A stretch of 64,000 bases of DNA from the NCBI GenBank assembly GCA_963741205.1, contig CAVUHW010000018.1, positions 32,001 through 96,000 of the forward strand. The letters run 5' to 3'. The translations under genes and the position numbers were made by a program. The notes below the pieces were generated by a model that saw only the letters and a list, made by a program, of their open reading frames with translations, was not told the origin of the DNA and did not search any database. The DNA is from Nitrospirota bacterium (GTDB lineage: Bacteria > Nitrospirota > UBA9217). Of the stretch, positions 5,192 to 63,959 are shown piece after piece. Numbering within the stretch: position 1 is the stretch's first letter; each line of letters starts with the position of its first letter.

Positions 5192-5200
5192 TTCTTCCTC

Positions 5201-6595: not shown

Positions 6596-6830
6596 AAAGA
6601 CCTCCTTTAAACTCAACATTTCAAAAACCTTATCTTCATGTCACATTCTAGCAGACTTTTTTCGTACATGAGTCTTAAAAACCAGTTAAGGCTGACTCAG
6701 CTGCCGTTTTTTTATGTTATTTCCACCTCCCAACGTTTACCGAATTAATAAACAAAGAGTTTTATTAAGGCAATCCATCGTTCAATATATTGGGCATCAG
6801 ATAATAGACAAGTGAAATGATTTAAAATAA

Positions 6831-6846
6831 AGCAAAGTATGTGCCA
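6831..6846 (-). promoter_or_regulatory. sigma54 -24/-12 promoter for the lipoprotein-MCO operon
   Basis: Minus strand TGGCACATACTTTGCT. Confidence 0.8.
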
Positions 6847-6920
6847 GCACTAACAGAATTTAACATTATTTATAAAACAAATGGTTATATAAATTAGCGT
6901 CCCACATTAAGCCCAAACGA

Positions 6921-11041: not shown

Positions 11042-11064
11042 GGTGTCCCTCCGGAAAGACACTT

Positions 11065-21573: not shown

Positions 21574-21649
21574 GTCTACCTCCCTTGGAAAAATCGTGAT
21601 TTGGACGATAGAGGACGCGGACTGTCGCAAGGGTGATGGATGTGATAAT

Positions 21650-23205
21650 TTATACGCCTATCGGACACTTCTCACTTCGTTTCTCTTCCGTCATTCTCTG
21701 CGCATCTCTGCGTCTCCGTGCAATCTCACGTCGTATTTTCGCTCGCTCTGTCGTCCCTGCCGCGGGCAGGTCGATAAGGACCTTCGTATATGCTCCCTGG
21801 ACGCTCTGTACGGCCAGCTTGCCGCCGTGATCGGCGACGATCCCGTGACTGATGGAGAGCCCGAGACCGGTCCCCTCGCCCTTGGGCTTGGTGGAGAAGA
21901 AGGGATTCATGATCTTGTCCAACGCGTCGGGCGCTATGCCGATGCCGCGGTCATGAAAGGTGATGCGGACGAAAGAACCGTCATCGGTCGCTGACCTCTT
22001 CGCAGTTGATATCGAGGGCCTTGTCTTCGTGTTCTCCCGGATACTTCTGATGCAAGGCATACTGGGCGTTGTTGATAATGTTCATGAACACCTGCTGGAT
22101 CTGCTGTGGATTCGCCGTTATTTCGGGCAGGCCTGGCGGAAGGTCGATCCGTAAATGCACCCCTTCCTTCCTCATCTGCGACTCCGTGAGGATGAGGGCC
22201 TCGCGGAGGATGTTCTCCACGCGCACGGGCCTTTTTTCTTCTTTTCTGTCCCGGGCGAAGGAGAGGAGGCTCTTGACGATGCCGGCGATGCGGCGTCCTT
22301 CTTTGGATATCCTCTCGGCCACGTCGTTTTCGGCGCTTCCCTTGACGCTCTTGTTCGACAGGATCCTGGCGTAATTGATGATCCCGTTTATGGGATTATT
22401 GATCTCATGGGCCACACCGGCCGCGAGTTTGCCGATCGATGCGAGATGCGCGGCCCTGAGCGTTTCGACCTGCAGGGCGATATTGCGAGCAGTGGCGGTC
22501 CTTATCCTTTGGTCCATTTCCTCATTCGACCTCTGCAGCGCCTGTTCAGCCCGCCTGCGCCCGAGTTCCCGATGATAAAGCCCGACCATCGATACCATCA
22601 CGATCAAGGCCCATATGAGAACAGTGATGAAGAAGAGACGTTTCGTCTCGGCCTGGTCGTTCAAACGGTCCTTCTCGACGGCATATTTCGAGGGCCCGGG
22701 CGTTTCTCTGGAATTCATTGAATACAGCGTTGAACCGGTCATCCAGGGCGGATCCGGTTCCTCCCCCACGCTCCAGGTCCCGGGAGCGTTTTTGGGCAAG
22801 ATCCTTCAAACTGTCAAGGTGGAGTCTGATGTTTCTCGCAAGCTCGATAAAGGCGGGATCTTCGAAGGGGACAAGATGTGTGCCGTTTTCCGCTGCTCCG
22901 CCGAACAGGAGCGCATCTGAAAATTTAATGGCTTCATCGATATCCGTAAAGGACTTCTCCACGTCCTCTCTCGCACCTTCTGCAATGGCCTCTTCAAACC
23001 AGAGATGAAAGGTCGCCGTCCGCACCTGGATGTCCATGATGTCATCGACATATTCGAAAGCCATCTTCTGTCTCTCCGCGATCGAAAAACAGCCAGAAAA
23101 GCATGACAATCGAGAGGATTCCCAGGAGGAATACCGCCGTGGGCATCCAGTACCACTGCCTGAATATTTGATGACCTTTCACCGGTGATCTCCAGACGTC
23201 TTCAT
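21650..23205 (-). CDS. Membrane sensor histidine kinase (HisKA, NtrB type), frameshifted
   Basis: AGVAHEINNP H-box, QQVFMNIINNA, GEGTGLGLSISHGI; periplasmic FHLWFEE domain. Confidence 0.85.
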
Positions 23206-23206
23206 A

Positions 23207-24860
23207 TGAATAACCCGCCCCTGAACCATTTACATGGTTGCAGTGGGGGTTTCACGGATCATAGAAGCATGCAGTCCCTGAGTAGTTCCCAAGGCCTGTC
23301 TTATCTGCCTCTCCCCGCGCGTGACTTCGGCCGGTTCCCGGCCTAGTTTTTCCTTCTTCCTTAGCCGCATGGCGCGCTTGTGATACTTTACGGCAATTTC
23401 GCCGGACACAAGCATTTTTATGCCGCGCTTCTTGATAACGATAGACGCATTGGTATCGGCGTTTTCCGTAAAGCCACAGCTCTGGCAATCGAACACCGCC
23501 TGTGACTGGCGATTGTCCGGGTGAGTGTGCGAACACTTCGAACACTCCTGTGAGGTGCCGTGCGGCGGTATGGCGATAACGAGCTTGTTGCGTCGTGAGG
23601 CTTTGTACGTCGTAAAGAGTTTTACCTTGCCCCACGCTGATTCGAGTATGGACTTGTTGAGACCGGCCTTGGCCTTTGCCCCGTTCGCAATATACGTCCC
23701 GCCGGCTGACTTCTTAGGTTTTGGCGCTCTGGTCATGTTCTTGACCTTGAGGTCCTCGAAGACGAACACCTCTGCGGGTGAATCCACGAGCTTGCGGCTG
23801 GCCTTATGCGCGAAATCATGCCTCACGTTGGCAGCATACGCCTGGCACCGGGCTGATTTCGCAACTGATTGCCTAAAGCGGCCGGATCCTTTGCTCCGCC
23901 TCGCCATTTGCCTCTGATATCTCTTCTTCCGGGCATCCTTTTTTAACAGACGCTCTTGTTGGATGCTGGAGAAGTCATACATAAATCCGTCGCTCGTTGC
24001 CAGCGGGATTTTCACCCCTCGGTCCATTCCCAGGGCAACGGTATTGAGACTCTCTGATGACATGCCGCCGTAAAGCTCGAGAAGTTCCTGCTCGCTTAAA
24101 ACTGCGCCTTGCTTCTCATAGGAGAAGGAGACATACCATTTCCCGGACTCCCGGGAAATGGTGATAGCCGCCGGAACCTCGTACTCATCATGAGCCTTGA
24201 ACTTAAGTTCGCCCAGATCGACCGACTTCGTGCCAAGCATCAGCCGGTGCTCATATATTGTTTTGTCTTGCCGCTGTTTTGAGCCTCCAGTAGGAACGAA
24301 CCTGAACAGCTCGCTGGTAATCCAGACGGACTGCCGTCCTGCCTTCTTTTTATAAGCAGGGCGACCAGCCAGTCCTGTCAGGTACCTCTTGCAGGCGCCC
24401 ATGAACCTGGTTGCGCCATTCCTTAGGATATGAGACGGCACATCATACAGAAACGGGGCGAGTTTCTTGTCCTTGAACTGGGCGTATTGCTGATCAATCG
24501 GCGGCTGTAGTCCGGTTAGCGACAGTGAATGATTCCGGAAAGTACGGAAATAACGCTCCTCGGCAACCTTGGCGTTGTAGATAAACCGCTGGCAGCCCAT
24601 CCACTGCGCGAGAATATCGGGCTGCTCCGTTGTCGGGTAGCAACGGAATTTTATGCCGCTTGAAAATCGCCATATCTCTAATATAGGTGATGAATCCTGA
24701 TAGTGCAACTCAATAATACGCTGCAGCCATCGGTACTATATTATAAGATTGCATATCGTTTCGTAGCACAGACAACGCACCAATCCACATCCAAAACAAG
24801 TCCGCTTGACCCCCTCCTGGCGCTTCACCCCTAGCAGGGGGAATGCGCGGACTTTAGTTC
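23207..24860 (-). mobile_element. IS200/IS605-family element carrying tnpB, with a possible tnpA remnant
   Basis: tnpB ORF; the minus-strand right end reads ..ggcgggttaTTCA; hairpin-forming left-end region ~24810-24860; boundaries inferred. Confidence 0.7.
23230..24708 (-). CDS. tnpB: TnpB RNA-guided endonuclease
   Basis: KFRCYPT N-terminus; RuvC GMDRG, FEDL, NADTNA; zinc finger CSKC..CQSC; true start possibly 24673. Confidence 0.93.
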   Translation of the reverse strand: MHYQDSSPILEIWRFSSGIKFRCYPTTEQPDILAQWMGCQRFIYNAKVAEERYFRTFRNHSLSLTGLQPPIDQQYAQFKDKKLAPFLYDVPSHILRNGATRFMGACKRYLTGLAGRPAYKKKAGRQSVWITSELFRFVPTGGSKQRQDKTIYEHRLMLGTKSVDLGELKFKAHDEYEVPAAITISRESGKWYVSFSYEKQGAVLSEQELLELYGGMSSESLNTVALGMDRGVKIPLATSDGFMYDFSSIQQERLLKKDARKKRYQRQMARRSKGSGRFRQSVAKSARCQAYAANVRHDFAHKASRKLVDSPAEVFVFEDLKVKNMTRAPKPKKSAGGTYIANGAKAKAGLNKSILESAWGKVKLFTTYKASRRNKLVIAIPPHGTSQECSKCSHTHPDNRQSQAVFDCQSCGFTENADTNASIVIKKRGIKMLVSGEIAVKYHKRAMRLRKKEKLGREPAEVTRGERQIRQALGTTQGLHASMIRETPTATM

Positions 24861-27297: not shown

Positions 27298-27313
27298 AGC
27301 AAAGCTTATGCCA
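27298..27313 (-). promoter_or_regulatory. sigma54 promoter for the regulatory operon
   Basis: Minus strand TGGCATAAGCTTTGCT. Confidence 0.8.
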
Positions 27314-30107: not shown

Positions 30108-31476
30108 TTACTCTTCTTCCGTAAGCGAATGCACTTCTGCCCGTCCGAGCCTGACATCGGCATGGCGGACCCCGAGTTCCCGCACATCGGTCACCGCCAC
30201 CATCGGGAAAAATTTTGCAAAAAGCGTATACATGAGCATGAACCCGGCGAAGGCAGCCGCGGTCACGGAAAGCTCCACCCACGAGGGAGAATAGGTGCCC
30301 CAGACGAAGGGCATGTTCTTATGAGAAAGCGACGGAATGATGATAAGGTAGCGTTCGATGAACATGCCCACGTTGACCAGGACGGTGATCGCGAGCATGG
30401 CTTTCACCGAACGCCTGATCTTCTTGAAGCAGAGGGCCGTGATGGGCAGCACGGCGTTGCCGATAAGCATAAGGATGAGCAGCGGCGTATATTTTCCTGC
30501 CATGAAGCTGAAGACCTCCCATTCGATCGGATGATGAGCGTACCACGTTGTCTGGACCTCGACGAAATAAGCATAGGCCCAGAGCAGGCAGATGACAAGC
30601 AGGAGCTTCCCCATGTTGTCGAAATGCAGCGGAGTGAGATAATCCTCCAGATGGAAAACCCTCCGGATGATGATCATGAGCGTGATGACCGCTGCAACGC
30701 CGGAGGTGATCGCGCCGATCACGAAGTAGGGAGGAAAGATCGTGCTGTGCCATCCCGGGACCACGGTGACGGCGAAGTCCCAGGCAACGATCGAATGCAC
30801 CGAGACGGCCACCGGGATGATGAGTGCCGCCATGAGCGTCGAGGCCTGGCGGAACACCACCCACTCCCGGGCCGTTCCCCGCCACCCCATGGCAAGGACG
30901 GCATAGATCTTTTTTCGCCAACCCGGAGGATCGGTCGCGGACCACGGCAAGGTCGGGAAGCATCCCCAGGTAGAGAAAGAGGCTGCTGCCGATGATATAG
31001 GTCGTGATCGCCGTCACATCCCACAAAAGCGGAGACCGGAAATTCGGCCAGAGCCCGCGCTGGTTGGGATAGGGCATGAAATAGTAGACGACCCAGTTGC
31101 GGCCCAGGTGAATGACCGGGAAGAGGCCGGCAACGGTGATGCTGAAAACGGTCATTGCCTCGGCGGCGCGCAGGATCGGTCTGCGCCAGTTGGCCTGGGA
31201 GAGGCGCAGGATAGCGGACACCATGGTCCCCGAATGGGAAAGGCCGACCCAGAAAACAAAATTGACGATGTAGATGCCCCACATGACCGGCCGGTCCAGG
31301 CCGGTTACGCTCAAGTCGGTCATCACCTGGTAGGTGAAGGCGGCGAGTCCCCACGCAACCACTGCCCCGAGGAAGAAGGCAAGCCCGTACCACTGCCAGG
31401 TCGGAGTGCGCATTGAGGAAAGCAGCTCGTCGTTAAGCTGTCCAGCGCTTTTTTCAGCGATTGCATGTTCAGACAT
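30108..31476 (-). CDS. actC: Alternative complex III NrfD-family membrane subunit C, frameshift ~30930
   Basis: WGIYIVNFVFWVGLSHSGT, RAAEAMT, HLGR, NFRSPLLWD, VHSIVAWDF, GWHSTIFPPYF. Confidence 0.9.
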
Positions 31477-31498
31477 ATGAATAACCTCAGATTCAATC

Positions 31499-31579
31499 TG
31501 TCATTCCTGCGGAAGCAGGAATCCATTTTGAAGATTATTTGATAAAAGCCATTGGATACCTGCTTTCGCAGGTATGACA
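31499..31579. repeat. Composite REP-like element
   Basis: tgtcattcctgcggaagcaggaatcca...tggatacctgctttcgcaggtatgaca. Confidence 0.8.
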
Positions 31580-35511: not shown

Positions 35512-35713
35512 GAACTAAGGTGTGCATTGGGAAATAAATTCAACGAAGTATGATCCAAAACTACTCAAAGTTTATCTTAATTGTGCTGATAGTCAAGTCG
35601 GATGACATGGACGGCGCTTCGACTCCCTGTTTCCCGTCATTTGACAAACCCTGACGCCGCTGTTATAGTTCATTACAATCGACCTGACGCCTGCCGGAGA
35701 TCGCACAACAACC

Positions 35714-36126
35714 ATGACGAACCGACGCCAATTTTTACAAAAAGCACTTGCAGTCCTGGGTCTGACGACCCTCGCTTCCTTCCTTTATCCCCTTTTCAAA
35801 TATTTCTCGCCGCCGGCCGGGGAAGCCGGGGCAAGACGGCTTGTCCTCGGCAAAACAGAAATTCCCGTCGGTGAGGCGAAAGAGATTGTTTTTAACAACA
35901 CTCCTGCCATCGTCATCAACAGGCCGGACAAGGGGTATGTTGTACTTTCCCGCGTCTGCACTCATCTCGGGTGCCTTGTGGATTATCAAAAAGATATGAA
36001 GAGGTTTCTTTGTCCCTGCCATGGAGGGACGTATGACCTTTCGGGAAGCGTCATTTCAGGACCTCCCCGAAGCCTTTGCAGCAGTTTCCGCTCAAGGTCG
36101 AGGGAGACTCCATTATTATAGGATGA
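35714..36126 (+). CDS. Rieske iron-sulfur protein, terminal frameshift
   Basis: NRRQFL Tat anchor, CTHLGC, CPCHGG, GPP. Confidence 0.93.
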
Positions 36127-36131
36127 TAAAA

Positions 36132-36223
36132 ACCCATCCCCACCGTTTGTCCTCCCGCTTCGAAGTTGGAGGAAACTTCTATCCTTCTCCCCCTTCAACG
36201 GGGAGACTCGAGAGGGGGATGGG
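36132..36223. repeat. Pair of REP-like palindromes
   Basis: Related to 12848-12947 (tctcccccttcaacggggaga..gagggggatggg). Confidence 0.55.
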
Positions 36224-36241
36224 TGAACCAGGGAAAGCGCC

Positions 36242-37333
36242 ATGTGGAAAACCATAAAAAACTGGATCGAGGTCAGGATCGGCCTCGATGAGCTCGTAAG
36301 GACCCATCTCACCGGATATCTGGTCCCGAGGAGCATCAACCTTTTTTATACCCTCGGGTTCGTCGCGCTCGCCGGGTTCATCGTCCAGATCCTCACCGGT
36401 TTTCTCCTGCTCATCTACTACGTCCCGCTTCCGGACCATGCCTTCAGGAGCGTCCAGAACATCATGGTGAACGTGCCCTACGGCTGGCTTTTCAGGCTGA
36501 TGCACGTGGTGGGAAGTAACCTCATCGTGGTCGCGGTCGGGTGCCACATGCTCTCGGTCTTTTTCATGAACAGCTACAAGAAGCCGCGGGAACTGACCTG
36601 GTTCGCGGGCGCCTGCATGCTGCTTATCACGCTTACCTTCTGCCTGAGCGGCTACCTCCTGCCCTGGAGCCAGCTCTCCTATTGGGCCACGACGATCGTG
36701 ACGAACATCCCCTCCGCGCTTCCGTACGTCGGCGCATTCGCCGTGACATGCCTGCAGGGGGGCCAGAGCCTGTCCGGGATCACACTCGGAAGGTTCTTCG
36801 CCCTCCACGTGGTCGTCCTGCCGGCCCTTCTTTTGACTCTCGTAAGCATCCACCTCTTTCTCGTGAGACGAATCGGCATCTCGTCGCCCCCCTTCGATAG
36901 GGCGGGAGTTAAAGAGCCGTGGACCGGTTTCAGACATGAGGACCATCCGGACGGCTATCCCTTCTTTCCGCACTTCGTGCTGAAGGAAACATACATGGTT
37001 ATGGCCCTCTTCGCGCTCATGTTTCTCATCATCACCTTCGCCCCGGCCCTGTTTTTACCTGAGGACGCGAACATCCCGGCGGACCCGCTGAAGACCCCGA
37101 TGCACATCAAGCCTGAATGGTATTTTCTCGCCCCCTATCAGATGCTGAAACTGGTTCCGAACAAGTTCGTGGGCGTCAGCCTGCAGATCATCATGGTCAC
37201 GCTGTTTATCCTGTGGCCTTTTCTTGACGTAAAAAAAGAGGACAATATCCTGAAGCGACGAGGCCTGTTCGCCTTTTTCATCGTCGCGCTCATCGGGTGG
37301 GTCGTACTTACGATATGGGGAAAATATTCGTAA
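36242..37333 (+). CDS. Cytochrome b of a Rieske/cytochrome b complex (unsplit)
   Basis: Four heme-ligand His, GYLLPWSQLSYWA, KPEWYF. Confidence 0.95.
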   Translation: MWKTIKNWIEVRIGLDELVRTHLTGYLVPRSINLFYTLGFVALAGFIVQILTGFLLLIYYVPLPDHAFRSVQNIMVNVPYGWLFRLMHVVGSNLIVVAVGCHMLSVFFMNSYKKPRELTWFAGACMLLITLTFCLSGYLLPWSQLSYWATTIVTNIPSALPYVGAFAVTCLQGGQSLSGITLGRFFALHVVVLPALLLTLVSIHLFLVRRIGISSPPFDRAGVKEPWTGFRHEDHPDGYPFFPHFVLKETYMVMALFALMFLIITFAPALFLPEDANIPADPLKTPMHIKPEWYFLAPYQMLKLVPNKFVGVSLQIIMVTLFILWPFLDVKKEDNILKRRGLFAFFIVALIGWVVLTIWGKYS

Positions 37334-37419
37334 ACATGGACCAAGCCATCCGCCTGCACCCAGCGTTTTCGAGTGCCGATGCGCGAGAGCAGGGCGTGAT
37401 GGCGTGAATTAAATTTGGT

Positions 37420-37504
37420 TGTCATACCCGCGAAAGCGGGTATCCATTGGCTTCTATCAAATAAACTTCAAAATGGATTCCCGATAAAAGCATTCGGGAA
37501 TGAC
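37420..37504. repeat. Composite REP-like element
   Basis: tgtcatacccgcgaaagcgggtatcca...tggattcccga..tcgggaatgac. Confidence 0.8.
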
Positions 37505-37551
37505 GGTTTATTTTTATTTTAGCAGTATAAATATTTACGCGGATACATCAA

Positions 37552-38365
37552 ATGCCACGCAGAAAAAAAATAATATTCCTGTCTGCTGCTATCTTTGCCC
37601 TCGTTCTCGCAGCCGCGGCCCAAGGTGCGGAAAACCGGGAGCCGATCTGCATCCAATGCCATGACTCCGATATGATGAAGCCGGCATTCCGGAAGATTCC
37701 GGCGGAGTGGAGGCAGAGCTGGCACTATCAGAACGGCGTCGCCTGCAACGACTGCCACGGCGGCGACCCCGTGGACGCGGCCATGGCCATGTCGCCGCAG
37801 CGGGGGTTCGTCGGCGCCCCGAAATATAAAGATGTGCCCGAATTCTGCGGCAAATGCCATATCGGCATCCTGAAGAACTACACGGAGAGCGGCCACGGGA
37901 AGGCGCTCAAGGCCTCGGGCAGGGGCCCGAACTGCGTCACCTGCCACGGCTCCCACGGCATCCAAAAGGCGAACATCGACATCATCAACGAAGTGCGGTG
38001 CTCGCAGTGCCACACCTACGAGAGGGCCAGAATCATGAAGCAGGCCCTTTCCGCGACGGAGCAGAAGATAGGGGACATCAGGAACGCACTGAAGAAGCTG
38101 TCATCACAGGGGATCTATACCGGGGGAGGAAGACAAGGAGCTGTTCCGCACCGAAGCGGAATTCCGCACGCTTTTTCATACGGTCGACGTTTCCCTCGTG
38201 AAGCAGAAGACAGATAGTTTTCACGAGCGGCTGGATGCGATCCAGAAAAAGGCGGATGCCCTCTTTGCCGATCTCCGCTCCAGAAGGAACTTCTCCGGCT
38301 TCCTTTTGTTCCTCTTTCTCGGCACGGGAGTGATTGTTTATTTGCTCGCAAAGTCCTACCGGTGA
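37552..38365 (+). CDS. Pentaheme cytochrome c with C-terminal helical region and TM anchor, frameshift ~38125
   Basis: Signal peptide; CIQCH, CNDCH, CGKCH, CVTCH, CSQCH. Confidence 0.88.
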
Positions 38366-39045
38366 GAACACACTTCGAAGGCGGAGAAGCGAAGACGTTT
38401 TCTCCTGCCGGCCTTTCTCATCGTAAGCCGCGGTCCCCCGAAGAGATGCAGATTACAACCTTCACAAGGTCTTGTCGCGATCGTCAACCAGTCGAATGTT
38501 TTCGCGTATGTCTAACTTCCTTGCTTCCCCTGATGCAGCGAATAAATCCTAAGTTCTCCCCACAAAATCCCAACCAAGCGTCAAATTCAACCCAATTCCC
38601 CAGTGATAAAAATTCGCATGCCCTTTCACAGTCGAGGTAAGTGTCAAAGCAGCGTTCTCGTTTGGCGAGTTCATAACACATCACACTGGATGAGAGTACG
38701 CAGACTTGTCGGCTGGCCGATTTATGTCGAATATGCCTCTTCTTATTTTGCATTGGCGTATCACTTTATCTCGACAAATCAGTATTCGTTTTAAAATAGG
38801 TAATTATACTCATTTACTTTCTGCGCTGATTTTATAAAATTGTTTCAGATAAGTTCATGGGAGTGCATGAGAGCAAAAAATGGTATGCATTTTTCTGCAC
38901 TCTATCGTAAGCGATTTATCATCACGCTTAATTTTACTTCCTGAATGTGCTTTATCGTTATTTAATGATTTTCCGCGAGTCGCGGCCGGTTGAAATTTCA
39001 GACGCATATAGCGGCATCCGCGCAGCTTACAGGCCTGCACGGCAG

Positions 39046-39091
39046 GTTCAAATTGAATGAGTCCGTTCAAATTAAACGGGCGAATATGAAC
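39046..39091. promoter_or_regulatory. Putative enhancer (three GTTCA-N3-TGAAC-like sites)
   Basis: gttcaaattgaat; gttcaaattaaac-g-ggcgaatatgaac. Confidence 0.65.
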
Positions 39092-39175
39092 CTGCCACGA
39101 ATAATTCAACGGCGCAGTTTCTTATAATCATAGGCTTTGCAAGTAATTATTCACACGCGACTAGTCAACTGCTTC

Positions 39176-39191
39176 TGGCACACACTTTGCT
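39176..39191 (+). promoter_or_regulatory. sigma54 promoter
   Basis: TGGCACACACTTTGCT. Confidence 0.85.
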
Positions 39192-39389: not shown

Positions 39390-42052
39390 ATGAAGAAAGG
39401 ATTTTACAGGAAGTCGAGTGCGACCGTGCGGTTCACGGCATGGGTCGTAATCTACGCGTTTCTCATGCTGCCGAGCGGCGTGGCATTTGCAAACCCACCC
39501 GCGCTCAGCACGGTGAAGATTCCCTCACCGCCGAATCTGGATGATTTCGTGAAGGACAAGAAGGCGGCCATCATGCTGGGCAAGGCCCTGTTCTGGGACA
39601 GCAGGTGGGCGGCGACGGCGGTCAGGCCTGTGCCAGTTGCCACTACATGGCGGGCGCTGACCCCTATGATGTAAGAAACAAGAACCAGGTCAATCCCGGT
39701 CCGAACGGGGCCTTCGACGTGGTGACCGGTCCCAACCAGACCCTGGCAGATCGGCCTTCCCGTTCTGTGCAGGTGTCGGACCCCGCCGGCGCGAAACTGG
39801 AGAACGGCCTCGGGGTTCTGTGCACCGGCACACCCTGCACCGGCACGACGTATAAGGACGACGTCGTCGGCTCCCAGGGTGTCAGCTTCGACCATCTTCA
39901 CCAGTTTATCCGGCACCGCACGGGACACCGGGAACGCCGTTGATGACCCGACGTTCCACTTCTCGCGGCAGGGTGACCGGACGCAACACCCCGCCCGCGG
40001 TCAACGCGGTGTTCAACTACGCCAACTTCTGGGACGGCCGGGCCAACAATATCTTTAACGGCTGCAAGCCCCATCGGTCCCCTCGATGGAAGCGCGGGAA
40101 TCTGGGTCAATCTGGCAGGGCCTACGGAAACGCCGAATCTTCAGTTCCAGAAGGTCGCCATACCCAACGCGAGCACTCGCTTCCCAGGCAGTCGGTCCCC
40201 CGAACAATGGCACTGAGATGTCGTGGGACGGCCGCAACTTCCCGCAGCTCGGCCGCAAACTGCTCGACCCTCACCCCGCTCGGGCAGCAGCATCGTGGAT
40301 CCCAATGACAGCGTGCTGGGGGGACTCTCTCCAACGCAGACACACGGGACTCAACACCACGACCTACGCCCAGATGATCCAGAACGCTTTCTATGAAAAA
40401 TACTGGGATTCGTTCGGCCAGACCATCGTCATCAACGGCACGGCCTACAACCAGATGGAGGCGAATTTCTCCCTGTTCTGGGGCCTTTCGGTCATGCTCT
40501 ACGAGTCGACCCTGGTCTCTGACCAGACGCCCTTTGATCTGGGCACCATGACCGCCATACAGCAGCAAGACGGGCTTCTCGGTATTTAACGGGAAAGGCA
40601 AGTGCACCAAATGCCACAGCGGCTCCGAGCTCAGCGACGCTACGGTCTCCGACGCCCTTGCGAACGGCCTGATCGAGAAGGGCGCAGACCAGGACCAGCG
40701 AGGCCATCAGCGACAACGGCTTCCACAATCTCGGCGTAAGCCCCACGGCGGCTGACATCGGCCGGGGCGGCGTCGGCGGCTCTCCGTTCATACAGAACAG
40801 TTTCTCGATTTCGTCCTTTGCGCAACAGGCGATCGCCCAGGCCAACGGCGGGCTTCTGTTTACCGCGCCGCAGGCGATCTTCGGCGGGATCACAGCCAAC
40901 ACGCCGGTCGCGGTGAACGGCTCCTACAAGACCCCGCAGCTCCGAAACGTGGCCTTGACCGCACCCTATATGCACAACGGCAGCATGCTCACCCTCGCCG
41001 AGGTGGTGGAGTTCTACGCCCGCGGCGGGAATTTCGCCAATGCTGAACAGGCCAAGGACATGAGCGGGCCTTTCGGCGGAGGCGCCCTGGCTCCGGCCGA
41101 TCGTAACCGCTATCGTGGACTTCCTCCAGAACGCCCTGACCGACCCGCGGGTAGCTGCGGAGACGGCCCCCTTCGACCATCCGACGCTGACGATCCCCGA
41201 CGGCAACGGTTGCGGATACCAGAATCACTCTGCCGGCCACGGGCGGCAGCCTGGCGGGCTACACCTTCGATCTCGACAATTACCTAGCAACACGCCTTTG
41301 CGACACTTGTGTCGAGACCACGACCCTGGCCGGCCTGCCGAAGGCTGAGATCACCGGCGCCCCGGCCGGCGTGACCAATCAGACCGGCGCGACCATAACC
41401 GTCGGAGGAGCGGACGTCGTGGCCTTCATGTACAAGCTCGACAACGGTGTGTACAGCGCGGAAACTCCGACAACCTCGCCGATTGCCTTGACTGGCCTGG
41501 CCAACGGCGCCCACACCGTATCAGTTGTCGGCAAGAATGCGGCCGGGAGCTGGCAGCTTGACGCATTCGCGACTACCGCGAGCTGGACCGTTAACACCAC
41601 CCCGCCGCCGGTTAGTATCAATCCCGTCGCTTCGAACACCAGGAACACAACCCAGACCATCGCCGGCACGATGGAAGCAGGGGCTACGGTAACGGTGAGA
41701 GTGAATACCGGGGCCACGGTCGGACCCGTCACGGTCAGCGGCAACTACCTGGACCTGCCAGGTGAGCGGATTGGCAAACGGCGACAACACCATTACGGTC
41801 ACCGCCACCAACGCCAGCGGCAACACGAACAGCTCGACGGCCACTATAAAAGTAGTCATCGCGGACGGGTGCTTCAGGGGTACAGGAAGCCCGGACATCA
41901 CCGACGCCCTGAAGGCCTTGAAAATGGCGGTCGGGATCATAGCGCCGACAAACGACGATCTGCTGCACGGGGATGTCACGTCAGACGGCAGGATCGACAC
42001 CGGCGACGCATTGCTGATCCTGAGGAAATCGGTCGGCATGGCGGCGTTCTAG
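39390..42052 (+). CDS. Secreted diheme bCcP/MauG-superfamily protein with Ig-like domains and C-terminal dockerin, many frameshifts
   Basis: Signal peptide; [52 protein letters not shown]; terminal [19 protein letters not shown]. Confidence 0.85.
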
Positions 42053-42134
42053 CGAGTTGTGAGACCGGCTTGTCAGTGCAAGCTTGCAGGCCTGCAAGCC
42101 GGACATTTAACGGGTTATTAACGAGGAGGAAGCC

Positions 42135-43325
42135 ATGAAATTAAGGAACTTACTAGTGTTGGTCTTAAGTCTGGCGGTGCTTGCGCTGGCGGGCTGCGGC
42201 AGTTCGAGCAGCAATAACACGCCGGTGTCGACTCAACCAGGAACCCAACCCGCCTTATCGACGGTCATAAACGGCCTGGCCTCAAAGGGGCCGATCAATA
42301 CGGGGACGGTGAAGGTCTTTGCCGTACGGAACGGCGTCACGGACACGTCCGTGCCGATAGCCACGGGAACAACGGACGCCAACGGAAACTTCACCGTTGA
42401 CGCCGGCGGCTTCAATGGTCCGGTCGTCGTGGAAGTGACTGACGGCTCGTTCACGGACGAGGTGACCGGCGCGAAGGTGACCCTGAAGACGCCGCTGCGG
42501 ACAATGGTAGCCGACGTCTCAACCGGGACGTCAACGGTGGCGGTTACCCCGCTGACCGAACTGGCCGCGAAAAGAACGGAAACTCACGCGGCAATAACGC
42601 CCGACGTGATTAACGAAAGCAACAAAAACGTCGGCGCCACCTTCCAGCTCGCCGACATCGTAACGACCCTGCCGATCGCGACCGGCACCGCGGAGCAGAA
42701 AAAGCACGCCTCAGCCTGCGGCGCCATTTCGCAGCTCGTGAACAGCAGCAGGCATGCGGGAGAGTCTACGGACGATGCCCTGTCAAGGGTCATGGGCGAA
42801 ATGGAAACCGAGATAGAAAATAGCGGCGGTTTATCGGATGACTCCATCAGCAAAATAAACACCGCGGTAACGGAGTTCAACAGCAGCGGTAAAGGCAGCG
42901 GCGCTCCGGTGGCAGCTCCGACCGACGGCGTGCTCAAAATCAGCACATCGGGTGCGAGCTTCATGGGCGCCCTCGACATGACGCTCAATTTACCGGCCGG
43001 AGTGACGGTGACTGTTGCCGACCCGGCCACGGGTGAAGCGGCAGCAGGGACTGTCACGAATTCAGGCGCAGCCGGCACCGGTACGCAGGTGGCGGCCAAG
43101 GTCATCCCGACAACCGGCGGTACTCCGGGTCAAGTGGTAATAGGCATGATTAACCCGGCCGGGTTCGGCGGCGGCGAGTGCCTCACGATCGACTTCAAAA
43201 TTGCCACGGGGGTGAACTTGCCGGCCGCGGCCGACTTCACCATCACCGGCGTCTCAGCCAAGGATCTCGGCGCCAAGCTGATCAATGGTGTGACTGCCGC
43301 GCCGAAATCAGTGGCAGCAATGTAA
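42135..43325 (+). CDS. Lipoprotein with putative C-terminal cohesin-like domain
   Basis: Intact 396 aa ORF; LAG-C lipobox; GLASKGPI..VTPLTELA domain; beta-rich C-terminal ~130 aa. Confidence 0.8.
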   Translation: MKLRNLLVLVLSLAVLALAGCGSSSSNNTPVSTQPGTQPALSTVINGLASKGPINTGTVKVFAVRNGVTDTSVPIATGTTDANGNFTVDAGGFNGPVVVEVTDGSFTDEVTGAKVTLKTPLRTMVADVSTGTSTVAVTPLTELAAKRTETHAAITPDVINESNKNVGATFQLADIVTTLPIATGTAEQKKHASACGAISQLVNSSRHAGESTDDALSRVMGEMETEIENSGGLSDDSISKINTAVTEFNSSGKGSGAPVAAPTDGVLKISTSGASFMGALDMTLNLPAGVTVTVADPATGEAAAGTVTNSGAAGTGTQVAAKVIPTTGGTPGQVVIGMINPAGFGGGECLTIDFKIATGVNLPAAADFTITGVSAKDLGAKLINGVTAAPKSVAAM

Positions 43326-43346
43326 TGATGTAAGAACCACTGTTAA

Positions 43347-43371
43347 GGGGCGGCCATCCACGGCCGCCCCC
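43347..43371 (+). terminator. Terminator hairpin
   Basis: ggggcggcc...ggccgcccc. Confidence 0.55.
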
Positions 43372-43387
43372 TCCCTTATTCTTAGGT

Positions 43388-43432
43388 AACCACTCTGAAC
43401 CGCAGGTTCAGAATAAACCGTTCAAAATGAGC
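43388..43432. promoter_or_regulatory. Putative enhancer (GTTCA-N3-TGAAC-like sites)
   Basis: aaccactctgaac; gttcagaataaac-c-gttcaaaatgagc. Confidence 0.65.
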
Positions 43433-43506
43433 TTGTCGATAATATTCTCTTCTTATCCTTTTATTAACTTCTCTTAAACAAAAGGATTATTCACCTTATG
43501 ACCTAA

Positions 43507-43522
43507 TGGCATTGCTTTTGCT
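43507..43522 (+). promoter_or_regulatory. sigma54 promoter
   Basis: TGGCATTGCTTTTGCT. Confidence 0.8.
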
Positions 43523-43770
43523 TACAGATTACAGATATGTAAAGCAATTATAATTCAATTGCGTTCTCCGAGCTGCACTGCAGTGAGGCTGCAATCACAA
43601 CTGCATCGGTTTTTATCCGGGATACCGATGTCTTCTTAACAAATCGGCATGTCTACCCATTTATTTCGAAAATTTTGTAATAGACTTGATATAATAGAGA
43701 ATAAAAAATCGAGTGTTCGATTTAGCGGTCTTTGACGGTACAGATATCATAGCTTGAAAAGGAGAAAGCC

Positions 43771-44993
43771 ATGAAAATAAAGAGCTTAATTGTTTCGGTC
43801 CTCAGTCTGGCAATATTGGCATTGTCAGGTTGCAGTAAGAGTAGCGATAGCACGCCGGCGCCGGTTAGCCAGCCCACGTCAACGACTGCAATCGCCGGCG
43901 TGGCCTCGAAGGGTCCGATCGCGGGAGCGGTGGTACAGGTGTTTGCCATAAGGAGCAATGTCACGGACACGGTCCCGTTCGGAACGGGGCGGACGGACGC
44001 CAGGGGAAACTATGCCGTTCAGACGTTCGGCTACAAAGGTCCGGTCGTAGTCGAAGTGACCCAAGGCGCGTACAATGATGAGATTTCCGGCACGCAGGTG
44101 ACCATGAAGACCCCGCTGCGGGCGATGTTCTCGAGCGTCGGAACCGGCACGACATCAATAGCGGTAACACCCCTGACCGAGCTGGCCGCTAAAAATGCCG
44201 AAGGGCGTCCGACATTATCGACAGATGCGATCGACGCCGCGAACAACTATATCGGCGTTAACTTCGGTGTCCCCGGTATTGTTACGACGTTGCCGATTGC
44301 CAATTCCGGCGACGCGAACCAGACAAACTATGTCAACCAATTGAAAGTCTTTCAGCAGCTTGTATACAACAGCATGCAGCCGGGCGAATTGGCCGCAGGC
44401 CAGGTCAAGGGATGACGCCTTGGCAACGGTCATGGACGGTCTGGGCAATGAGCAACTACAAGACCCCCTCCATATGACGGCCACGACCACAGCCGCGTGG
44501 GCCTTCGCGACAGCTGTGTGCAATGACGCCTCTCGGCTGCAGGGAAACGCCGCCGGTTCAGAATCCCCCCGCTAATCCTGTTGGAGGAATCCTCAAATTA
44601 GCTACAGCCGGACCGGCTACTACGACTATCTTTCAAATCACACTGACGCTTGCGTTGCCGGCCGGGGTGACAGTGAATACCGCTCCGGGTTCAACCGAAG
44701 CGGGAGGAATTTCAGTCAACCTCTCCAAACTTCTAGACCCCAAGACTACCACGTTAACGGCATTAGTTACGCAGTCAACACTTACGACACCGGGTAAGAT
44801 CAACATCGTCGTCGGGGCCACGAAAAGCTTCCCTCCTGGTCAGTTTCTTATTGTTAACTTTAACCTGGATCCTGCGACCCCCCCCCCGCCTCCCGGAATT
44901 CCTGATTTCGCAATGACCGGCGTACTTATCCAGGGATTAAAGTTGGTTACACTCGACGGGATAACCATTTCGCCGGCGCTGACATATCTTTAG
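43771..44993 (+). CDS. Lipoprotein paralog with putative cohesin-like C-terminus, frameshifted
   Basis: LSG-C lipobox; GVASKGPI..VTPLTELA; ORFs 43771..44415 and 44523..44993 collinear with 42135..43325. Confidence 0.78.
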
Positions 44994-45007
44994 CAATAGA
45001 AAGATGG

Positions 45008-45041
45008 GAGGCGGCCTTTCTCAGGCCGCCTCTTTTTTTTT
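45008..45041 (+). terminator. Rho-independent terminator
   Basis: gaggcggcc..ggccgcctc followed by a T-run. Confidence 0.85.
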
Positions 45042-47767: not shown

Positions 47768-47964
47768 CCTGTCGCCGCATTTCCTCCTCCGAACCAGATC
47801 CCTTATCATCCTTGCCGGCCTCTCTCCCCGCGCTCTCTGCTGTTTTTCTCCTAAGAACTAATACCCTGTCGAATACGAGTTTATCCCGATTCACACGGCG
47901 CCCGTTCTTTGGTATGTTTCAATCAACAATACAATAAACCACAATCGAAAGGAGGGAACACACC

Positions 47965-48333
47965 ATGTTTAAACACACGGGAGGACAGCAGGTCGGGAGC
48001 GGAACCTATTGGGATGTTATGACCGGACTCAGGGTCGACATGGATCAGGAAGGCATGCTCCCCGGAGGAAAGGGTGCCAGGTACATGAAAGCATCATCGG
48101 GCGCAATAGTGTTATGGGGGCCTGTTCTTGGATTGGCCTACATCATTCTTCTGCCGATCATGGGCATCGTGACAGCGTTCAGTCTCCTGCTGCAAACGAC
48201 GCTCGGCGGAGTGTTCAACCTGGGCAAGAGCATCGTCTCCTTCGGGTGGAGGCCCAGCGAGGCGTATCTGGGCGGTAAAAACAAAAAGAAAGATGATAAC
48301 AGCAGGCCTGAAAGATCACCCGACCACAAGTGA
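47965..48333 (+). CDS. Small membrane protein A, copy 1
   Basis: GGAGG RBS; near-identical paralog at 49156. Confidence 0.8.
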   Translation: MFKHTGGQQVGSGTYWDVMTGLRVDMDQEGMLPGGKGARYMKASSGAIVLWGPVLGLAYIILLPIMGIVTAFSLLLQTTLGGVFNLGKSIVSFGWRPSEAYLGGKNKKKDDNSRPERSPDHK

Positions 48334-48407
48334 GTGGTGTCCATGCAGACAGTATCGCGATGATCCGCGACAGCAGTTAACGTATAGACTCCAAGGAGGA
48401 GCATGCT

Positions 48408-48809
48408 ATGAATACCATGTTTGATTTTGTCACGCATGTAAAAGGGATCGAGTACATCCTATCCCTGGCCTTGATTGCCGGGTATCTTCTGTTCTGGGAA
48501 GCACTGAAGCCCAAGCCGTTCCAAAAGGTGAAGGAGACCGGCCAGGAGGACCTGGAGCACGTCAAACAGACCGGGTTCAAGAACATGCTGAAGTTGGCGG
48601 GAAAGGTGGCCACCGCGCCCTTCGTCGGGCTGCTCTATATCATCCTTCTCCCCGTCGGCATGGTCAGCGCGCTGTTCTACACCCTGATCACGGGTTTGGC
48701 CGGGAAAGGCACGTCATTTTCCTGGAGACCGGCGGAAGCGTATCTCTCCGGCCAAAAGAAGACCAAGAAGCACGGACCTGACGACATCAAGCCGGATGAG
48801 AAGAAATAA
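48408..48809 (+). CDS. Small membrane protein B (HmcD-like N-terminus), copy 1
   Basis: FDFVTHVKGIEYIL..LFW resembles Hmc operon protein 4; paralog at 49599. Confidence 0.7.
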   Translation: MNTMFDFVTHVKGIEYILSLALIAGYLLFWEALKPKPFQKVKETGQEDLEHVKQTGFKNMLKLAGKVATAPFVGLLYIILLPVGMVSALFYTLITGLAGKGTSFSWRPAEAYLSGQKKTKKHGPDDIKPDEKK

Positions 48810-49155
48810 CTCTTATGAGAGGAAAGGGCGCTTAAAACAAGCGACCCTTTCTTTTTTTGTGCATATGGGCATACTGATATCGGGCCATCCTGACGTTGTC
48901 AACTGTTTCCTTCTTTTTTTGATAATGTTACGGGTTACAAGAGGACAGACCGCGCTGATATGAGGACGGCAGGAACGCCCCGACGAAGAAACATTGCTAT
49001 CCTTTGCTAAGAAAGCAGTCATAAGCGTTACTTTTTGTTACTACGAGTATATTCCCTGTCAACTACGAATTTATCCCGATTCACACGGCACCGTTTCGCT
49101 GATATGTTTTCAATCAACAACATGATAAACCCCAATCGAAAGGAGGGAACACACC

Positions 49156-49524
49156 ATGTTGAAATATACGGGAGGACAGCAGGTCGGAAGCGGAACCTAT
49201 TGGGATGTTATGACCGGACTGAGGGTAGACATGGATCAGGAAGGCATGCTCCCCGGAGGAAAAGGGGCCAGGTACATGAAAGCATCCTCGGGAGCAATAG
49301 TGTTATGGGGGCCTGTTCTTGGATTGGCCTACATCGTTATTCTGCCGATCATGGGCATCGTGACGGTGTTCAGTCTCCTGCTGCAAAGAACGCTCGGAGG
49401 AGTGTTCAACCTGGGCAAGAGCATCGTCTCCTTCGGATGGAGGCCCTCCGTGGCATACCTGGGCGGCAAAAACAGAAAGAAAGATAACCGCGACGAGTCA
49501 AAGAAAGCACCCCTTGGAAAATGA
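49156..49524 (+). CDS. Small membrane protein A, copy 2
   Basis: Paralog of 47965..48333. Confidence 0.8.
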   Translation: MLKYTGGQQVGSGTYWDVMTGLRVDMDQEGMLPGGKGARYMKASSGAIVLWGPVLGLAYIVILPIMGIVTVFSLLLQRTLGGVFNLGKSIVSFGWRPSVAYLGGKNRKKDNRDESKKAPLGK

Positions 49525-49598
49525 GCGGATCAGACACGGAAACATCACGATCATAAACCGACAGCATAGAAAATCCAAAACCGAAGAAAGGACACCCT

Positions 49599-50001
49599 AT
49601 GAATACCATGTTTGATTTTGTCACCCATGTTAAGGGGATCGAGTACATCCTATCCCTGGCCTTAATTGCCGGATATCTTCTGTTCTGGGAAGCACTGAAG
49701 CCCAAACCGTTCCAGAAGGTGAAGGAGACAGGCCAGGAGGACCTGGAGCACGTTAAACAGACCGGCTTCAAGAATACGCTGAAGTTGGCGGCAAAGGTGG
49801 TCTCCGCGCCCTTCGTCGGACTGCTCTATGTCATCCTCCTCCCCGTCGGGATGGTCAGCGCGCTGTTCTACACCCTGATCACGGGTTTGGCCGGGAAAGG
49901 CACGTCATTTTCCTGGAGACCGGCGGAAGCGTACCTCTGCCGGTAAGAAGAAAACCAAGAAGCAGGATGCTGACGAAAACAAGGACTCCGAGAAGAAGTA
50001 A
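49599..50001 (+). CDS. Small membrane protein B, copy 2, terminal frameshift
   Basis: Paralog of 48408..48809. Confidence 0.75.
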
Positions 50002-60974: not shown

Positions 60975-61826
60975 TCATGTGATATGTGATTTGGTCTCAA
61001 TGGCCCGTAATCTTTCCAAAACCCCTTCCACGATCCAGTCGGGCGTTGATGCCCCCGCCGTCACCCCGATCGAGCTGACGCCCTCCAGCCACTCAGGCTG
61101 GATTTCTTCGGCCAGCTCGATATGATAGGTGGGTTTGCCCTCCTGCCGGCAGAGATCCGCCAGCCTGCTCGTATTAGCGCTGTTGCGACCTCCTACCACC
61201 AGCATGACATCAACCTGGCTGGCGAGGACGCGGGCCGCTTCCTGTCGTTCCTTTGTTGAGCTGCAGATCGTATTAAAGACCTTTAATTCCTTGGAAAGCC
61301 GCAATAACTTTAGCACAATTTCGGAAAAATTGCTATAAGATTGCGTGGTTTGCGCCACAATGCCGAGCCGGGTCCGAAGTTTCATGCCGTCGGCATCCTC
61401 GGCCGTTTCCAGGACGACGGCAGTCATCACCGGCATGGCCGAGGATGCTCTGCACCTCCGGATGCTTTTTCTCCCCCACCACGATCACCTGGTATCCTTC
61501 TTTATTAAGCGCCTCCGCGTAGCGCTGCGCCTTTCCGACAAAGGGGCAGGTCAAGTCGATGATCGTAAGGCCGATGCCGCGGGCCTGGTCAAGGACGCGG
61601 GGAGGCACCCCGTGCGATCGGATAATGAGGGAGTCCCCGGCTTCAACGTGGAAAAATCGTCAATGGTCTCGATGCCGGCGCGGCGCAACCGCTCGACTTC
61701 CTGCGGGTTGTGAATGAGCGGTCCGAAACAGTAGACGCGCCCCTTGCCTGCCGCTTCGTAAGCCGTATTGATCGCCCGCTTTACGCCGAAGCAAAACCCC
61801 GCTTTGTCTGCAAGAAAAATTTCCAT
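60975..61826 (-). CDS. ispH: 4-hydroxy-3-methylbut-2-enyl diphosphate reductase, frameshifted
   Basis: AGFCFGVKRA, LIHNP, DLTCPFV, AQTT, NTICSST, SANT, TAGASTP. Confidence 0.95.
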
Positions 61827-62658: not shown

Positions 62659-63959
62659 TCAGTATGCCGCCTGTCTCAGCAGCCGTTCGAATCCCGGAAA
62701 GGATGTTTCGATCCACCCGGCGTCGCGCACGAACGTATCTCCCCGGGCGGCAAGGCCGGCGACGGCCATGGACATGGCGATGCGGTGGTCTCCGTGGCTC
62801 TCGCATACCGCGCCCTGAAGCGTCTCCTGCCCGGTGATTTCCATCCCGTCGGGGAACTCCGTCACTACGACGCCCATCTTGCGCAGTTCGGCAGCCATCG
62901 TCGCGATCCGGTCGGACTCCTTGACCCGGAGTTCGGCGGCGTCCCTGATGACGGTCTTGCCCTCGGCATAGGAGGCCGCAACGCACAGGACCGGGATTTC
63001 GTCGATGGCCCGCGGGATGATGTCTCCCGCGATCTCGACACGGCCCGGAGCCTGTCCGTACCTGTACACGGATGTCGGCCACCGGCTCTCCCGCCTGTTC
63101 CCGCCTGTTCTCAAGGCCGATATCGGCCCCCATGCCCGCGAAGGACATCGATGACGCCGGTGCGCGTGGGATTGACGCCGACGTTTCTTATCGTGAGGTC
63201 CGACCCGGGAACAATCGAGGCGGCAACCATGAAGAACGCCGCTGATGAAATGTCGGAGGGAATGGCGAGCGGTCCCGGTGCGCGAAGCCGCTGCCGTCCG
63301 CGCACGGTCACCCGGTTCCCCTCTTCCTTCACCTCAACGCCGAAGAACCGGAACAGGCGCTCTGTGTGGTCCCGCGACTTGGACGGTTCGCTGACCGATG
63401 TCGCGCCGTCCGCATACAGACCGGCCAGAAGCAGCGCCGACTTGACCTGGGCGCTGGCTATCGGGCTGGTGTAATCGATGGCCCTGATGCCCCTGCCTCC
63501 GCGGATCGCGAGCGGGGCAAGCCTGCCGCCGGAACGGCCGTCGATCCGTGCGCCCATCTGCCGGAGCGGCTCCACGATCCTGGCCATGGGCCTCTTTCGC
63601 AGGTACTCGTCGCCCGAAAGGACGGAGAAAAAATCCTGTCCCGCGAGCAGGCCCGCCAGGAGCCGCATGCCGGTGCCCGAGTTCCCGAGATCGAGCACGC
63701 CGTCGGGCTCGGACAGGCCATCAAGCCCCTTTCCGTGCACCACGAGGCTGTCGGTCCCGATCCCCTCGACTCCGATTCCGAGCATCCGCATCGCCCTTGC
63801 CGTATTCATCGTATCTTCGCCGGTCAAAAACCCGGCGATGTGCGTGTCCCCTTCGGCAATGGCGGCGAACATCGACAGCCCGGTGCGAGATGGACTTGTC
63901 CCCGGCAGCCCGATCTCTCCGCGAAGTCCGCGCGAGGGTTGTATCACGAGGTCGGACAT
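62659..63959 (-). CDS. aroA: EPSP synthase, frameshifted
   Basis: [56 protein letters not shown]. Confidence 0.96.

Follow-up and report, generated by a model that had tools for sequence, protein, structure and literature searches.

In a stretch of 64,000 nucleotides (64 kb, the window from here on) of a Nitrospirota bacterium (GTDB lineage Bacteria; Nitrospirota; UBA9217), taken from GenBank assembly GCA_963741205.1 (contig CAVUHW010000018.1, positions 32,001 to 96,000 of the forward strand), the region 39390–44993 holds three genes on the plus strand, coding for a di-haem enzyme and for two lipoproteins that we refer to as 1 and 2. The enzyme ends in a two-repeat tail with the sequence of a divergent dockerin, the next gene codes for a lipoprotein whose C-terminal domain is predicted to have a cohesin fold, and we think it rather probable that the two are the halves of a tethering cassette of the cohesin-dockerin kind that would hold the enzyme at the cell envelope. 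An initial annotation, made from the sequence alone, had already seen in these genes a cellulosome-style anchoring of a redox enzyme on lipoprotein scaffolds. As a tethering pair this idea is partly supported: the assignment of both modules and their adjacency across many types of cargo speak for it, while the promoter class that it took to be shared by all three genes does not extend to all of them.

The di-haem protein and its dockerin-like tail

The product of the di-haem gene starts with a signal peptide of the Sec type; then come a catalytic part, in which two CXXCH motifs are present, a region of immunoglobulin (Ig)-like domains and the two-repeat tail. The gene is broken in frame in the window, and on its pieces Pfam found CCP_MauG (22.1 bits) and RoxA-like_Cyt-c; on the intact relative of locus L002 (one of the loci from related genomes described below) CCP_MauG reached 77.9 bits. 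An intact near-orthologue, P0353, with 836 amino acids (aa) and an almost identical signal peptide, matched di-haem enzymes and bacterial cytochrome c peroxidases in the PDB (best 6e1c, E = 1.2e-22; MauG at ~1e-7). By its sequence the protein belongs to the bacterial cytochrome c peroxidase/MauG superfamily, with scores far under the cut-offs of the specific NCBIfam subfamilies MbnH and MauG, and the name “haem oxidant” that it had been given is a fair yet unproven label. The Ig-like spacers that had been seen between the catalytic part and the tail were borne out, since the window pieces stay under the Pfam cut-offs but the intact L002 relative passes them (Big_13, 51 bits; Glucodextran_B, 40 bits).

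The tail lies in a plus-strand frame that is open over 41705–42049. A profile of 24 tails from other genomes matched the window at 41858–42043 (E = 3.7e-17), the sole such tail in the 64 kb, and in an alignment of 33 tails the duplication into two repeats is clear. In the majority of the relatives the first loop is canonical and the second carries an insertion. The subfamily to which the window belongs has a degenerate, longer first loop and a short canonical second one, an arrangement kept in at least seven di-haem relatives, and the second loop of the window fits the 12-residue calcium-loop pattern D-x-[DNT]-x-D-G-x-I-D-x-x-D. The two repeats with a degenerate first loop had been read correctly in the initial annotation, and the degenerate form is conserved in close relatives.

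When the 33 tails were scanned singly, Pfam Dockerin_1 (PF00404) was found at E ≤ 0.1 in 16 of them (best 5.4e-7), and the next families, EF-hand and FG-GAP, in 4/33. A profile of the same tails against 177,635 PDB sequences gave 13 matches at E ≤ 10, of which 11 were dockerins, headed by 5m2o_B and 5m2s_B (E = 0.0044 to ~0.0045); these matches are individually marginal and, taken as a set, specific for dockerins. NCBIfam gave on the tails a weak “GC-type dockerin” match to one of them (17.7 bits, cut-off 29). At the level of sequence the tail is a divergent dockerin, and the earlier call stands as regards the specific match to solved dockerins and falls short in the Pfam check, where the Dockerin_1 cut-off was missed.

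The predicted cohesin fold of the lipoprotein domain

Both lipoproteins have a signal peptide and a lipobox of the usual pattern, and at least 90% of 65 relatives have kept the lipobox cysteine (Cys21) of lipoprotein 1. They were described as paralogues before and this is confirmed, as their N-termini are 52% identical over 211 aa (E = 3e-67) and their C-terminal domains 34% identical over 138 aa (E = 1e-9). Neither Pfam nor NCBIfam has a family for either of them. None of 80 relatives of lipoprotein 1 bears a descriptive name (they are “hypothetical protein” or unnamed), and in the ESM Atlas the homologue P0004 is found only in its own unnamed cluster, without a structure.

The AlphaFold2 model of the C-terminal domain of lipoprotein 1, made from an alignment of 32 sequences, is a nine-strand sandwich with a predicted local distance difference test score (pLDDT) of 95.2 and a predicted template modelling score (pTM) of 0.87. 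The best Foldseek match in the PDB was 2xdh, a non-cellulosomal cohesin of Archaeoglobus fulgidus (E = 1.3e-4, template modelling score, TM, 0.57/0.58), and 35 of the 37 rows listed were cohesin modules or cohesin-dockerin complexes, at probabilities of 0.97–1.00. A cohesin fold of this domain is therefore supported, as far as a predicted model goes; membership of the cohesin family by sequence is not, and the domains of the window lipoproteins do not reach the gathering cut-off of Pfam Cohesin (PF00963). The initial annotation had called the cohesin by eye, and the call holds at the level of the fold and not in the Pfam search.

Linkage and cargo in related genomes

Scanning one genome per species with an alignment of the lipoprotein, we obtained 40 loci, mostly from Geobacter, Geomonas, Geomesophilobacter and other Desulfuromonadales-type genomes and a few under other labels, and mapped on all six frames of each of them four profiles (the tail and the N-terminal, middle and C-terminal domains of the lipoprotein). 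In 28 lipoprotein genes both the N-terminal and the C-terminal domain were present and the upstream region could be seen, and 25 of them directly follow a gene that ends in the tail, with gaps of about −26 to +130 nucleotides (nt), or up to ~160 nt where only the domain starts could be mapped. As the loci were fetched through homology to the lipoprotein, 25/28 is an unbiased figure, uncorrected for shared ancestry. In eight loci with relatives that keep the N-terminal domain and have another C-terminus, the tail was found in none (0/8), anywhere in the locus. Locus L006 has a second tail gene that is followed by a lipoprotein of 161 aa made of the cohesin-type domain alone. In three loci (L007, 9211–11250; L021, 9335–10735; L037, 6098–7528) a second, shorter tail-bearing gene lies 3′ of the lipoprotein, whose gene has tail-bearing genes on either side, and a single anchor may serve two cargo proteins there. 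In these same three loci the gene of a sigma-54-type regulator comes next.

A Pfam scan of 20 of the upstream proteins, i.e., the presumed cargo, uncovered a wide variety. Two di-haem CCP_MauG enzymes in tandem are found in L002, Geomonas silvestris (L027) has a tailed multicopper oxidase ahead of a member of the lipoprotein family, and an S8 subtilase in L026 has both the tail and a cohesin of Pfam grade (6554–6883, 28.3 bits, cut-off 24.1). Others are NHL and sortilin/BNR propellers, a beta-helix protein and arrays of cadherin-type/Ig and carboxypeptidase-regulatory-type domains that reach 2600 aa and look like giant adhesins. No carbohydrate-active catalytic family was found in the 20, where the sole domains that take their names from such enzymes are accessory ones of the Ig type. 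Among 120 tail-bearing proteins listed from a large protein collection there are 25 CCP_MauG/RoxA-like proteins, 8 with NHL, 3 subtilases and 2 multicopper oxidases. Judging from these sequences, tail and lipoprotein behave as a portable unit that can be found on many secreted proteins.

The wider family of the domain

When 1.84 billion representative sequences were searched with a profile of the domain, 1353 proteins matched at E ≤ 0.001, of which 672 also pass E ≤ 1e-10. In 111 of the 150 best representatives the cohesin-fold domain stands alone, and 65 of the 99 proteins of up to 210 aa within these 150 have a lipobox in their first 50 residues. Another 26 begin with the N-terminal domain known from the window and continue, either directly or after the middle part, with a single cohesin-type domain. 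Two cohesin-type domains in tandem are found in seven, the domain together with Ig-like domains and the tail in three, and the tail followed by the domain in one; of the last two, one has a middle part and then the domain and the other, P0087, stays under every domain threshold. By analogy, the mixed architectures resemble scaffoldins and adaptor scaffoldins. P0087 itself (2325 aa) has ~15 tandem repeats of ~140 aa, whose N-terminal strand motif matches the profile of the lipoprotein domain, and ends in a clean two-repeat dockerin-like segment. Pfam calls neither cohesin nor dockerin in it, and it looks like a scaffoldin.

Weighing the tethering pair against other readings

A number of results weigh against a tethering pair. 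The window tail stays under the Dockerin_1 gathering cut-off of 22.9 bits (16.0 bits within a 115-aa piece, 18.1 bits alone), and the precomputed Dockerin_1 annotation is present in 0 of the 120 tail-bearing relatives listed. On the side of the lipoprotein, the TM-scores to cohesins are moderate (0.46–0.61), the domain profile found nothing significant and no cohesin among the PDB sequences, Pfam Cohesin was matched at E ≤ 0.01 by none of the 150 best representatives, and only 2/32 domains scanned alone matched it, weakly (best E = 0.025). Three of the 28 lipoprotein genes (L001, L003 and L013) have no tail gene upstream. These similarities under the curated cut-offs, together with the moderate TM-scores and the EF-hand families that also match 4/33 tails, are what would be expected if the tail were simply a calcium-binding module for stability or export and the lipoprotein domain a generic beta-sandwich, both being neighbours through joint export or regulation. 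We consider this quite improbable, because the Foldseek rows were specifically cohesins and not assorted sandwiches, the PDB matches of the tail profile were specifically dockerins, and the tandem and mixed arrangements of the modules mirror scaffoldins and adaptors.

The main rival is that the tail is indeed a dockerin but its partners are cohesins recognizable by Pfam and located elsewhere in the genome, with the lipoprotein helping in export, folding or surface exposure of the cargo. The clade does have cohesins of Pfam grade: P0232 (1200 aa) carries a tandem array of five, and the L026 subtilase has one besides its tail. Therefore, two kinds of cohesin-fold modules coexist in the clade, and those of Pfam grade could be the true partners of the tails. 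The lipoprotein domain aligns with them in hhalign at probabilities of 2–13% (8–13% against ten such domains), colinearly over the “G-x-x-A-T-x-x-F-x-V” strand region though at this low probability. Tails and lipoproteins do diverge jointly, which counts in favour of a pair, but in the mirror-tree comparison that shows this the distances among tails correlated almost equally with those of the C-terminal (r = 0.64) and the N-terminal domain (r = 0.59) of the lipoprotein, with partial r of 0.48 and 0.40 (both p = 0.0002), values that shared ancestry inflates in both cases. The analysis does not tell which domain is the partner because the tail correlates with both. What makes this rival unlikely in our view is that adjacency tracks the cohesin-fold domain, both in the eight loci where only the N-terminal domain is kept and no tail was found, and in L006, where the domain alone follows a tail gene. 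Besides, a cohesin fold in the lipoprotein would be an odd coincidence, and no Pfam cohesin was found in the 137 frames of the window or the pieces of the region that were scanned. We thus retain the pairing of tail and lipoprotein domain. A last point against it, the broken frames of the cargo gene and of lipoprotein 2 in the window, is taken up in the following section.

Frame breaks and assembly quality

Compared with intact relatives, the di-haem gene falls into nine frame segments, i.e., eight frame changes within 2.66 kb. In lipoprotein 2 a stop at 44413 closes frame 0. The C-terminal domain is read in a different frame, open from 44478 onwards only, and between the two halves each of these frames contains stops; the connecting stretch, in the third frame, gave no alignment to lipoprotein 1. 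The sequences quoted in the initial annotation are found where it had located them, but the broken frames of both genes had been overlooked. This damage, with lipoprotein 1 intact and with most break points of the di-haem gene away from long homopolymers, could mean that the cassette is decaying in this organism, in which case the frame changes would be real, lipoprotein 1 alone would be made and nothing would be docked. We give little credence to this scenario. The di-haem pieces retain 60–75% identity to intact orthologues across most segments, and the Pfam scan of the 137 long frames across the window found housekeeping, regulator and respiratory genes broken as well: EPSP synthase is split over two frames (profile positions 2–271 and 297–415), LytB/IspH and cytidylate kinase appear as partial frames only, and a sigma-54 activator, NrfD-type subunits and histidine kinases are likewise split. 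Examples of such split or partial genes lie on the minus strand at 62662–63959, 60978–61484, 9677–11062 and 30111–31500.

The assembly seems to carry frequent small insertions and deletions (indels), and a reading of the window based on its open reading frames (ORFs) needs care. Since essential and housekeeping genes are broken alike, the frame breaks in the di-haem gene and in lipoprotein 2 are probably errors of the assembly rather than gene decay. For the same reason, and because the intact near-orthologue P0353 exists, we treat both genes as functional in the organism, with some doubt.

Probable transcription units

Sites of the sigma-54 −24/−12 type were found four times in the window against 0.07 expected, and two of them, at 39176 upstream of the di-haem gene and at 43507 upstream of lipoprotein 2, have an exact copy of the motif GCAGGTTCA upstream. 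With one mismatch allowed this motif occurs eight times in the window (2.1 expected), and its only exact copies are those at 39042 and 43402. The first is part of an inverted repeat with TGAACCTGC located ~90–130 nt upstream of the sigma-54-like site, which by its sequence is a candidate site for an enhancer-binding protein. The second stands with CCGTTCAAA, a motif that alone is no commoner than chance in the window. The other two sigma-54-type sites are on the minus strand (6831–6846 and 27298–27313), and so are two genes of sigma-54 activators (~9677–11062 and 19886–21657).

The 82 nt before lipoprotein 1 contain no sigma-54-type site. The shared promoter class proposed for the three genes is thus found for the di-haem gene and lipoprotein 2 and not for lipoprotein 1. 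As sigma-54-type sites precede the di-haem gene and lipoprotein 2, the spacer between the di-haem gene and lipoprotein 1 has neither such a site nor a T-run, and a strong terminator comes after lipoprotein 2, a single transcription unit probably covers the di-haem gene and lipoprotein 1, with lipoprotein 2 as a second, co-regulated one without a cargo gene of its own.

Proposed mechanism

The di-haem enzyme would be exported via Sec with its two Ig-like spacers and its C-terminal divergent dockerin, and lipoprotein 1 would probably be co-transcribed with it from the sigma-54 promoter. After export, the dockerin tail would bind the cohesin-fold domain of the lipid-anchored lipoprotein, probably with a requirement for calcium, at least in the canonical second loop. 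In this way the lipoprotein would keep the enzyme at the cell envelope, with the outer membrane as the likeliest place, while the N-terminal sandwich and the helical parts of the lipoprotein would serve as a stalk. By analogy, the giant adhesin-like cargo of other loci favours a location at the cell surface. Lipoprotein 2 would be a second anchor of the same type, separately transcribed; in the initial annotation the two lipoproteins had been conjectured to offer alternative cohesins to the one dockerin. Because the same cassette serves many other secreted proteins in related genomes, it would be a general anchoring device and not one specific for haem enzymes.

More tentatively, and as a conjecture that we regard as doubtful, Geobacter-type bacteria and their relatives might have a large unannotated system of cohesin-fold lipoproteins (1353 clusters, the majority of them small lipoproteins with just this domain and some of tandem or adaptor-like form) that docks to the cell envelope a whole set of dockerin-tailed secreted proteins, including di-haem peroxidases and multicopper oxidases. 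Such a system would be a modular counterpart of the cellulosome for “redox and adhesion”, in which each cargo has a dedicated anchor gene. Geobacter multicopper oxidases are loosely attached to the surface and needed for metal-oxide reduction, and on how outer-surface proteins of Geobacter are attached, the answer so far has gone no further than “loosely bound”. Binding of the pair, if it occurs, would explain how secreted oxidases, peroxidases, proteases and giant adhesins are retained at the surface of Gram-negative metal reducers. The pair would also add to the cohesin fold a large family invisible to sequence annotation, and an organizing logic unlike that of the cellulosome, with one lipid-anchored cohesin beside each cargo instead of one scaffold for many enzymes. 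Pairs that can be tested are available in cultured strains of Geomonas (L027) and Geomesophilobacter (G. sediminis, loci L006, L011 and L024), and surface display in Gram-negative hosts could draw on the family for new docking pairs that are orthogonal.

Features of the region and of the rest of the window

The features of the three genes and their surroundings are collected in Table 1.

Table 1. Positions in the window of the di-haem gene, the two lipoprotein genes and the signals around them.
Feature	Position	Strand	Basis
Inverted repeat GCAGGTTCA...TGAACCTGC	39042..39095	+	read in sequence
Sigma-54-type −24/−12 promoter-like site (TGGCAC-N5-TTGCT) upstream of di-haem gene	39176..39191	+	
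Di-haem enzyme gene (bacterial cytochrome c peroxidase/MauG superfamily), secreted, with Ig-like domains and dockerin-like tail	39390..42052	+	frame map, CXXCH motifs, Pfam pieces
Region of two Ig-like spacer domains, crossed by a frame change near 41740	41191..41857	+	Pfam Big_13, Glucodextran_B, Big_6
Dockerin-like two-repeat C-terminal tail, first loop degenerate, second canonical	41858..42049	+	tail profile, Pfam, PDB profile
Perfect 8-bp palindrome without T-run, within the 82 nt that separate lipoprotein 1 from the di-haem gene	42082..42099	+	terminator scan: not called
Lipoprotein 1, intact, 396 aa, lipobox LAGC (Cys21), Ser/Thr/Pro-rich linker	42135..43325	+	ORF, domain profiles
Lipoprotein 1, N-terminal domain	42258-42746	+	
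Lipoprotein 1, helical middle part	42750-42917	+	
Lipoprotein 1, predicted cohesin-fold C-terminal domain (135 residues)	42918-43322	+	AlphaFold2, Foldseek
GC-rich hairpin with weak T-tract after lipoprotein 1, possible terminator	43347..43370	+	terminator scan: not called
Second exact copy of GCAGGTTCA and CCGTTCAAA motifs, upstream of lipoprotein 2	43402..43428	+	
Sigma-54-type promoter-like site upstream of lipoprotein 2	43507..43522	+	
Sigma-70-like site upstream of lipoprotein 2	43666-43695	+	
Lipoprotein 2, paralogue, lipobox LSGC, frame-broken	43771..44993	+	ORFs, alignment to lipoprotein 1
Lipoprotein 2, N-terminal domain, frame 0	43879-44370	+	
Lipoprotein 2, cohesin-type domain, other frame	44580-44978	+	
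Intrinsic terminator 3′ of lipoprotein 2, with a stem of 12 bp and a T-run	45006..45034	+	terminator scan

The di-haem gene has many redox genes around it. Upstream, across a gap of 1.1 kb, genes for a Rieske protein, a cytochrome b and a multihaem cytochrome c form a cluster at 35669–38214 on the plus strand, and there is a set like that of alternative complex III (ActD, NrfD, 4Fe-4S and molybdopterin fragments) at ~29–34 kb on the minus strand. Fragments of multicopper oxidase domains are located on the minus strand at 4196–5200 and 7385–8428, near the sigma-54-type site at 6831, and no dockerin-like tail was found on them. A tandem duplication at 47843–50001 (period 1.19 kb, 73–93% identity) repeats a cassette of two small predicted membrane proteins of ~122 and 133 aa that have no Pfam match. 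An IS605-family OrfB/TnpB-like gene with a Cas12f1-like TNB domain (23233–24735, minus strand, 501 aa) is apparently intact.

Comparison with known systems

The di-haem enzyme shares with those of the peroxidase/MauG/BthA type (6e1c, 4aal, 3hq6, 3l4m) the two CXXCH motifs and the CCP_MauG homology, but its catalytic part is of ~550 aa against ~320, and Ig-like domains and the docking tail are added to it. For the docking itself, the cellulosomes of clostridia and ruminococci, in which a scaffoldin with several cohesins (types I, II and III are known) and usually a carbohydrate-binding module gathers glycoside hydrolases that bear dockerins, offer the same principle and the same nine-strand cohesin sandwich, and tandem and adaptor-like forms are present in the wider family described here. 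However, the window has no multi-cohesin scaffold, each lipoprotein having one cohesin-type domain, the anchor is a lipid attached at a lipobox instead of an S-layer-homology module or a sortase, the host is Gram-negative, and the cargo consists of redox enzymes, proteases and adhesins. The term “cellulosome-style” used in the initial annotation is therefore adequate for the docking principle only, as neither a multi-cohesin scaffold in the window nor carbohydrate-active cargo among the 20 proteins was found.

Non-cellulosomal cohesin and dockerin modules are established and were reportedly surveyed by Peer et al. in 2009. Like those represented by 2xdh, the present case combines a two-repeat dockerin-like tail on a non-cellulolytic protein with a partner domain of predicted cohesin fold. 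It differs in that this domain is too divergent for Pfam Cohesin, is the C-terminal part of a lipid-anchored protein and is encoded directly after the cargo gene, as a one-to-one operon pair. Similar in lifestyle are the anaerobic methanotrophic (ANME) archaea and their syntrophic sulfate-reducing partners, for which excerpts of two papers describe cohesin and dockerin proteins with adjacent genes and varied extracellular cargo, and propose for them a role in organizing the cell surface (PMC9012536, PMC10553843). They are, like the bacteria discussed here, non-cellulolytic anaerobes with extracellular electron transfer and adjacent cohesin and dockerin genes; as far as those excerpts go, their modules were found by standard domain annotation of the Pfam type, which the lipoprotein domain escapes.

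In Geobacter, laccase-like multicopper proteins of the outer surface have Fn3-type and dockerin domains, and a soil study took the dockerins as a signal of cellulose use, in a passage that names no partner for them (PMC6199725). They belong to the same clade and have dockerin-type tails, and next to that passage a lipoprotein partner is proposed only here. Expression of ompB of Geobacter sulfurreducens (GSU1394, a multicopper oxidase) changes together with that of the next gene, GSU1395, a “hypothetical” one, according to an extract of another study (PMC10599522). In searches of full-text papers we found none in which, for relatives of Geobacter, a cohesin-like lipoprotein is paired with a protein that has a dockerin tail. 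If the predicted fold is right, what the present cassette would add to the known systems is a cohesin-fold family invisible to annotation, a lipid anchoring in Gram-negative bacteria and one anchor gene for each cargo gene.

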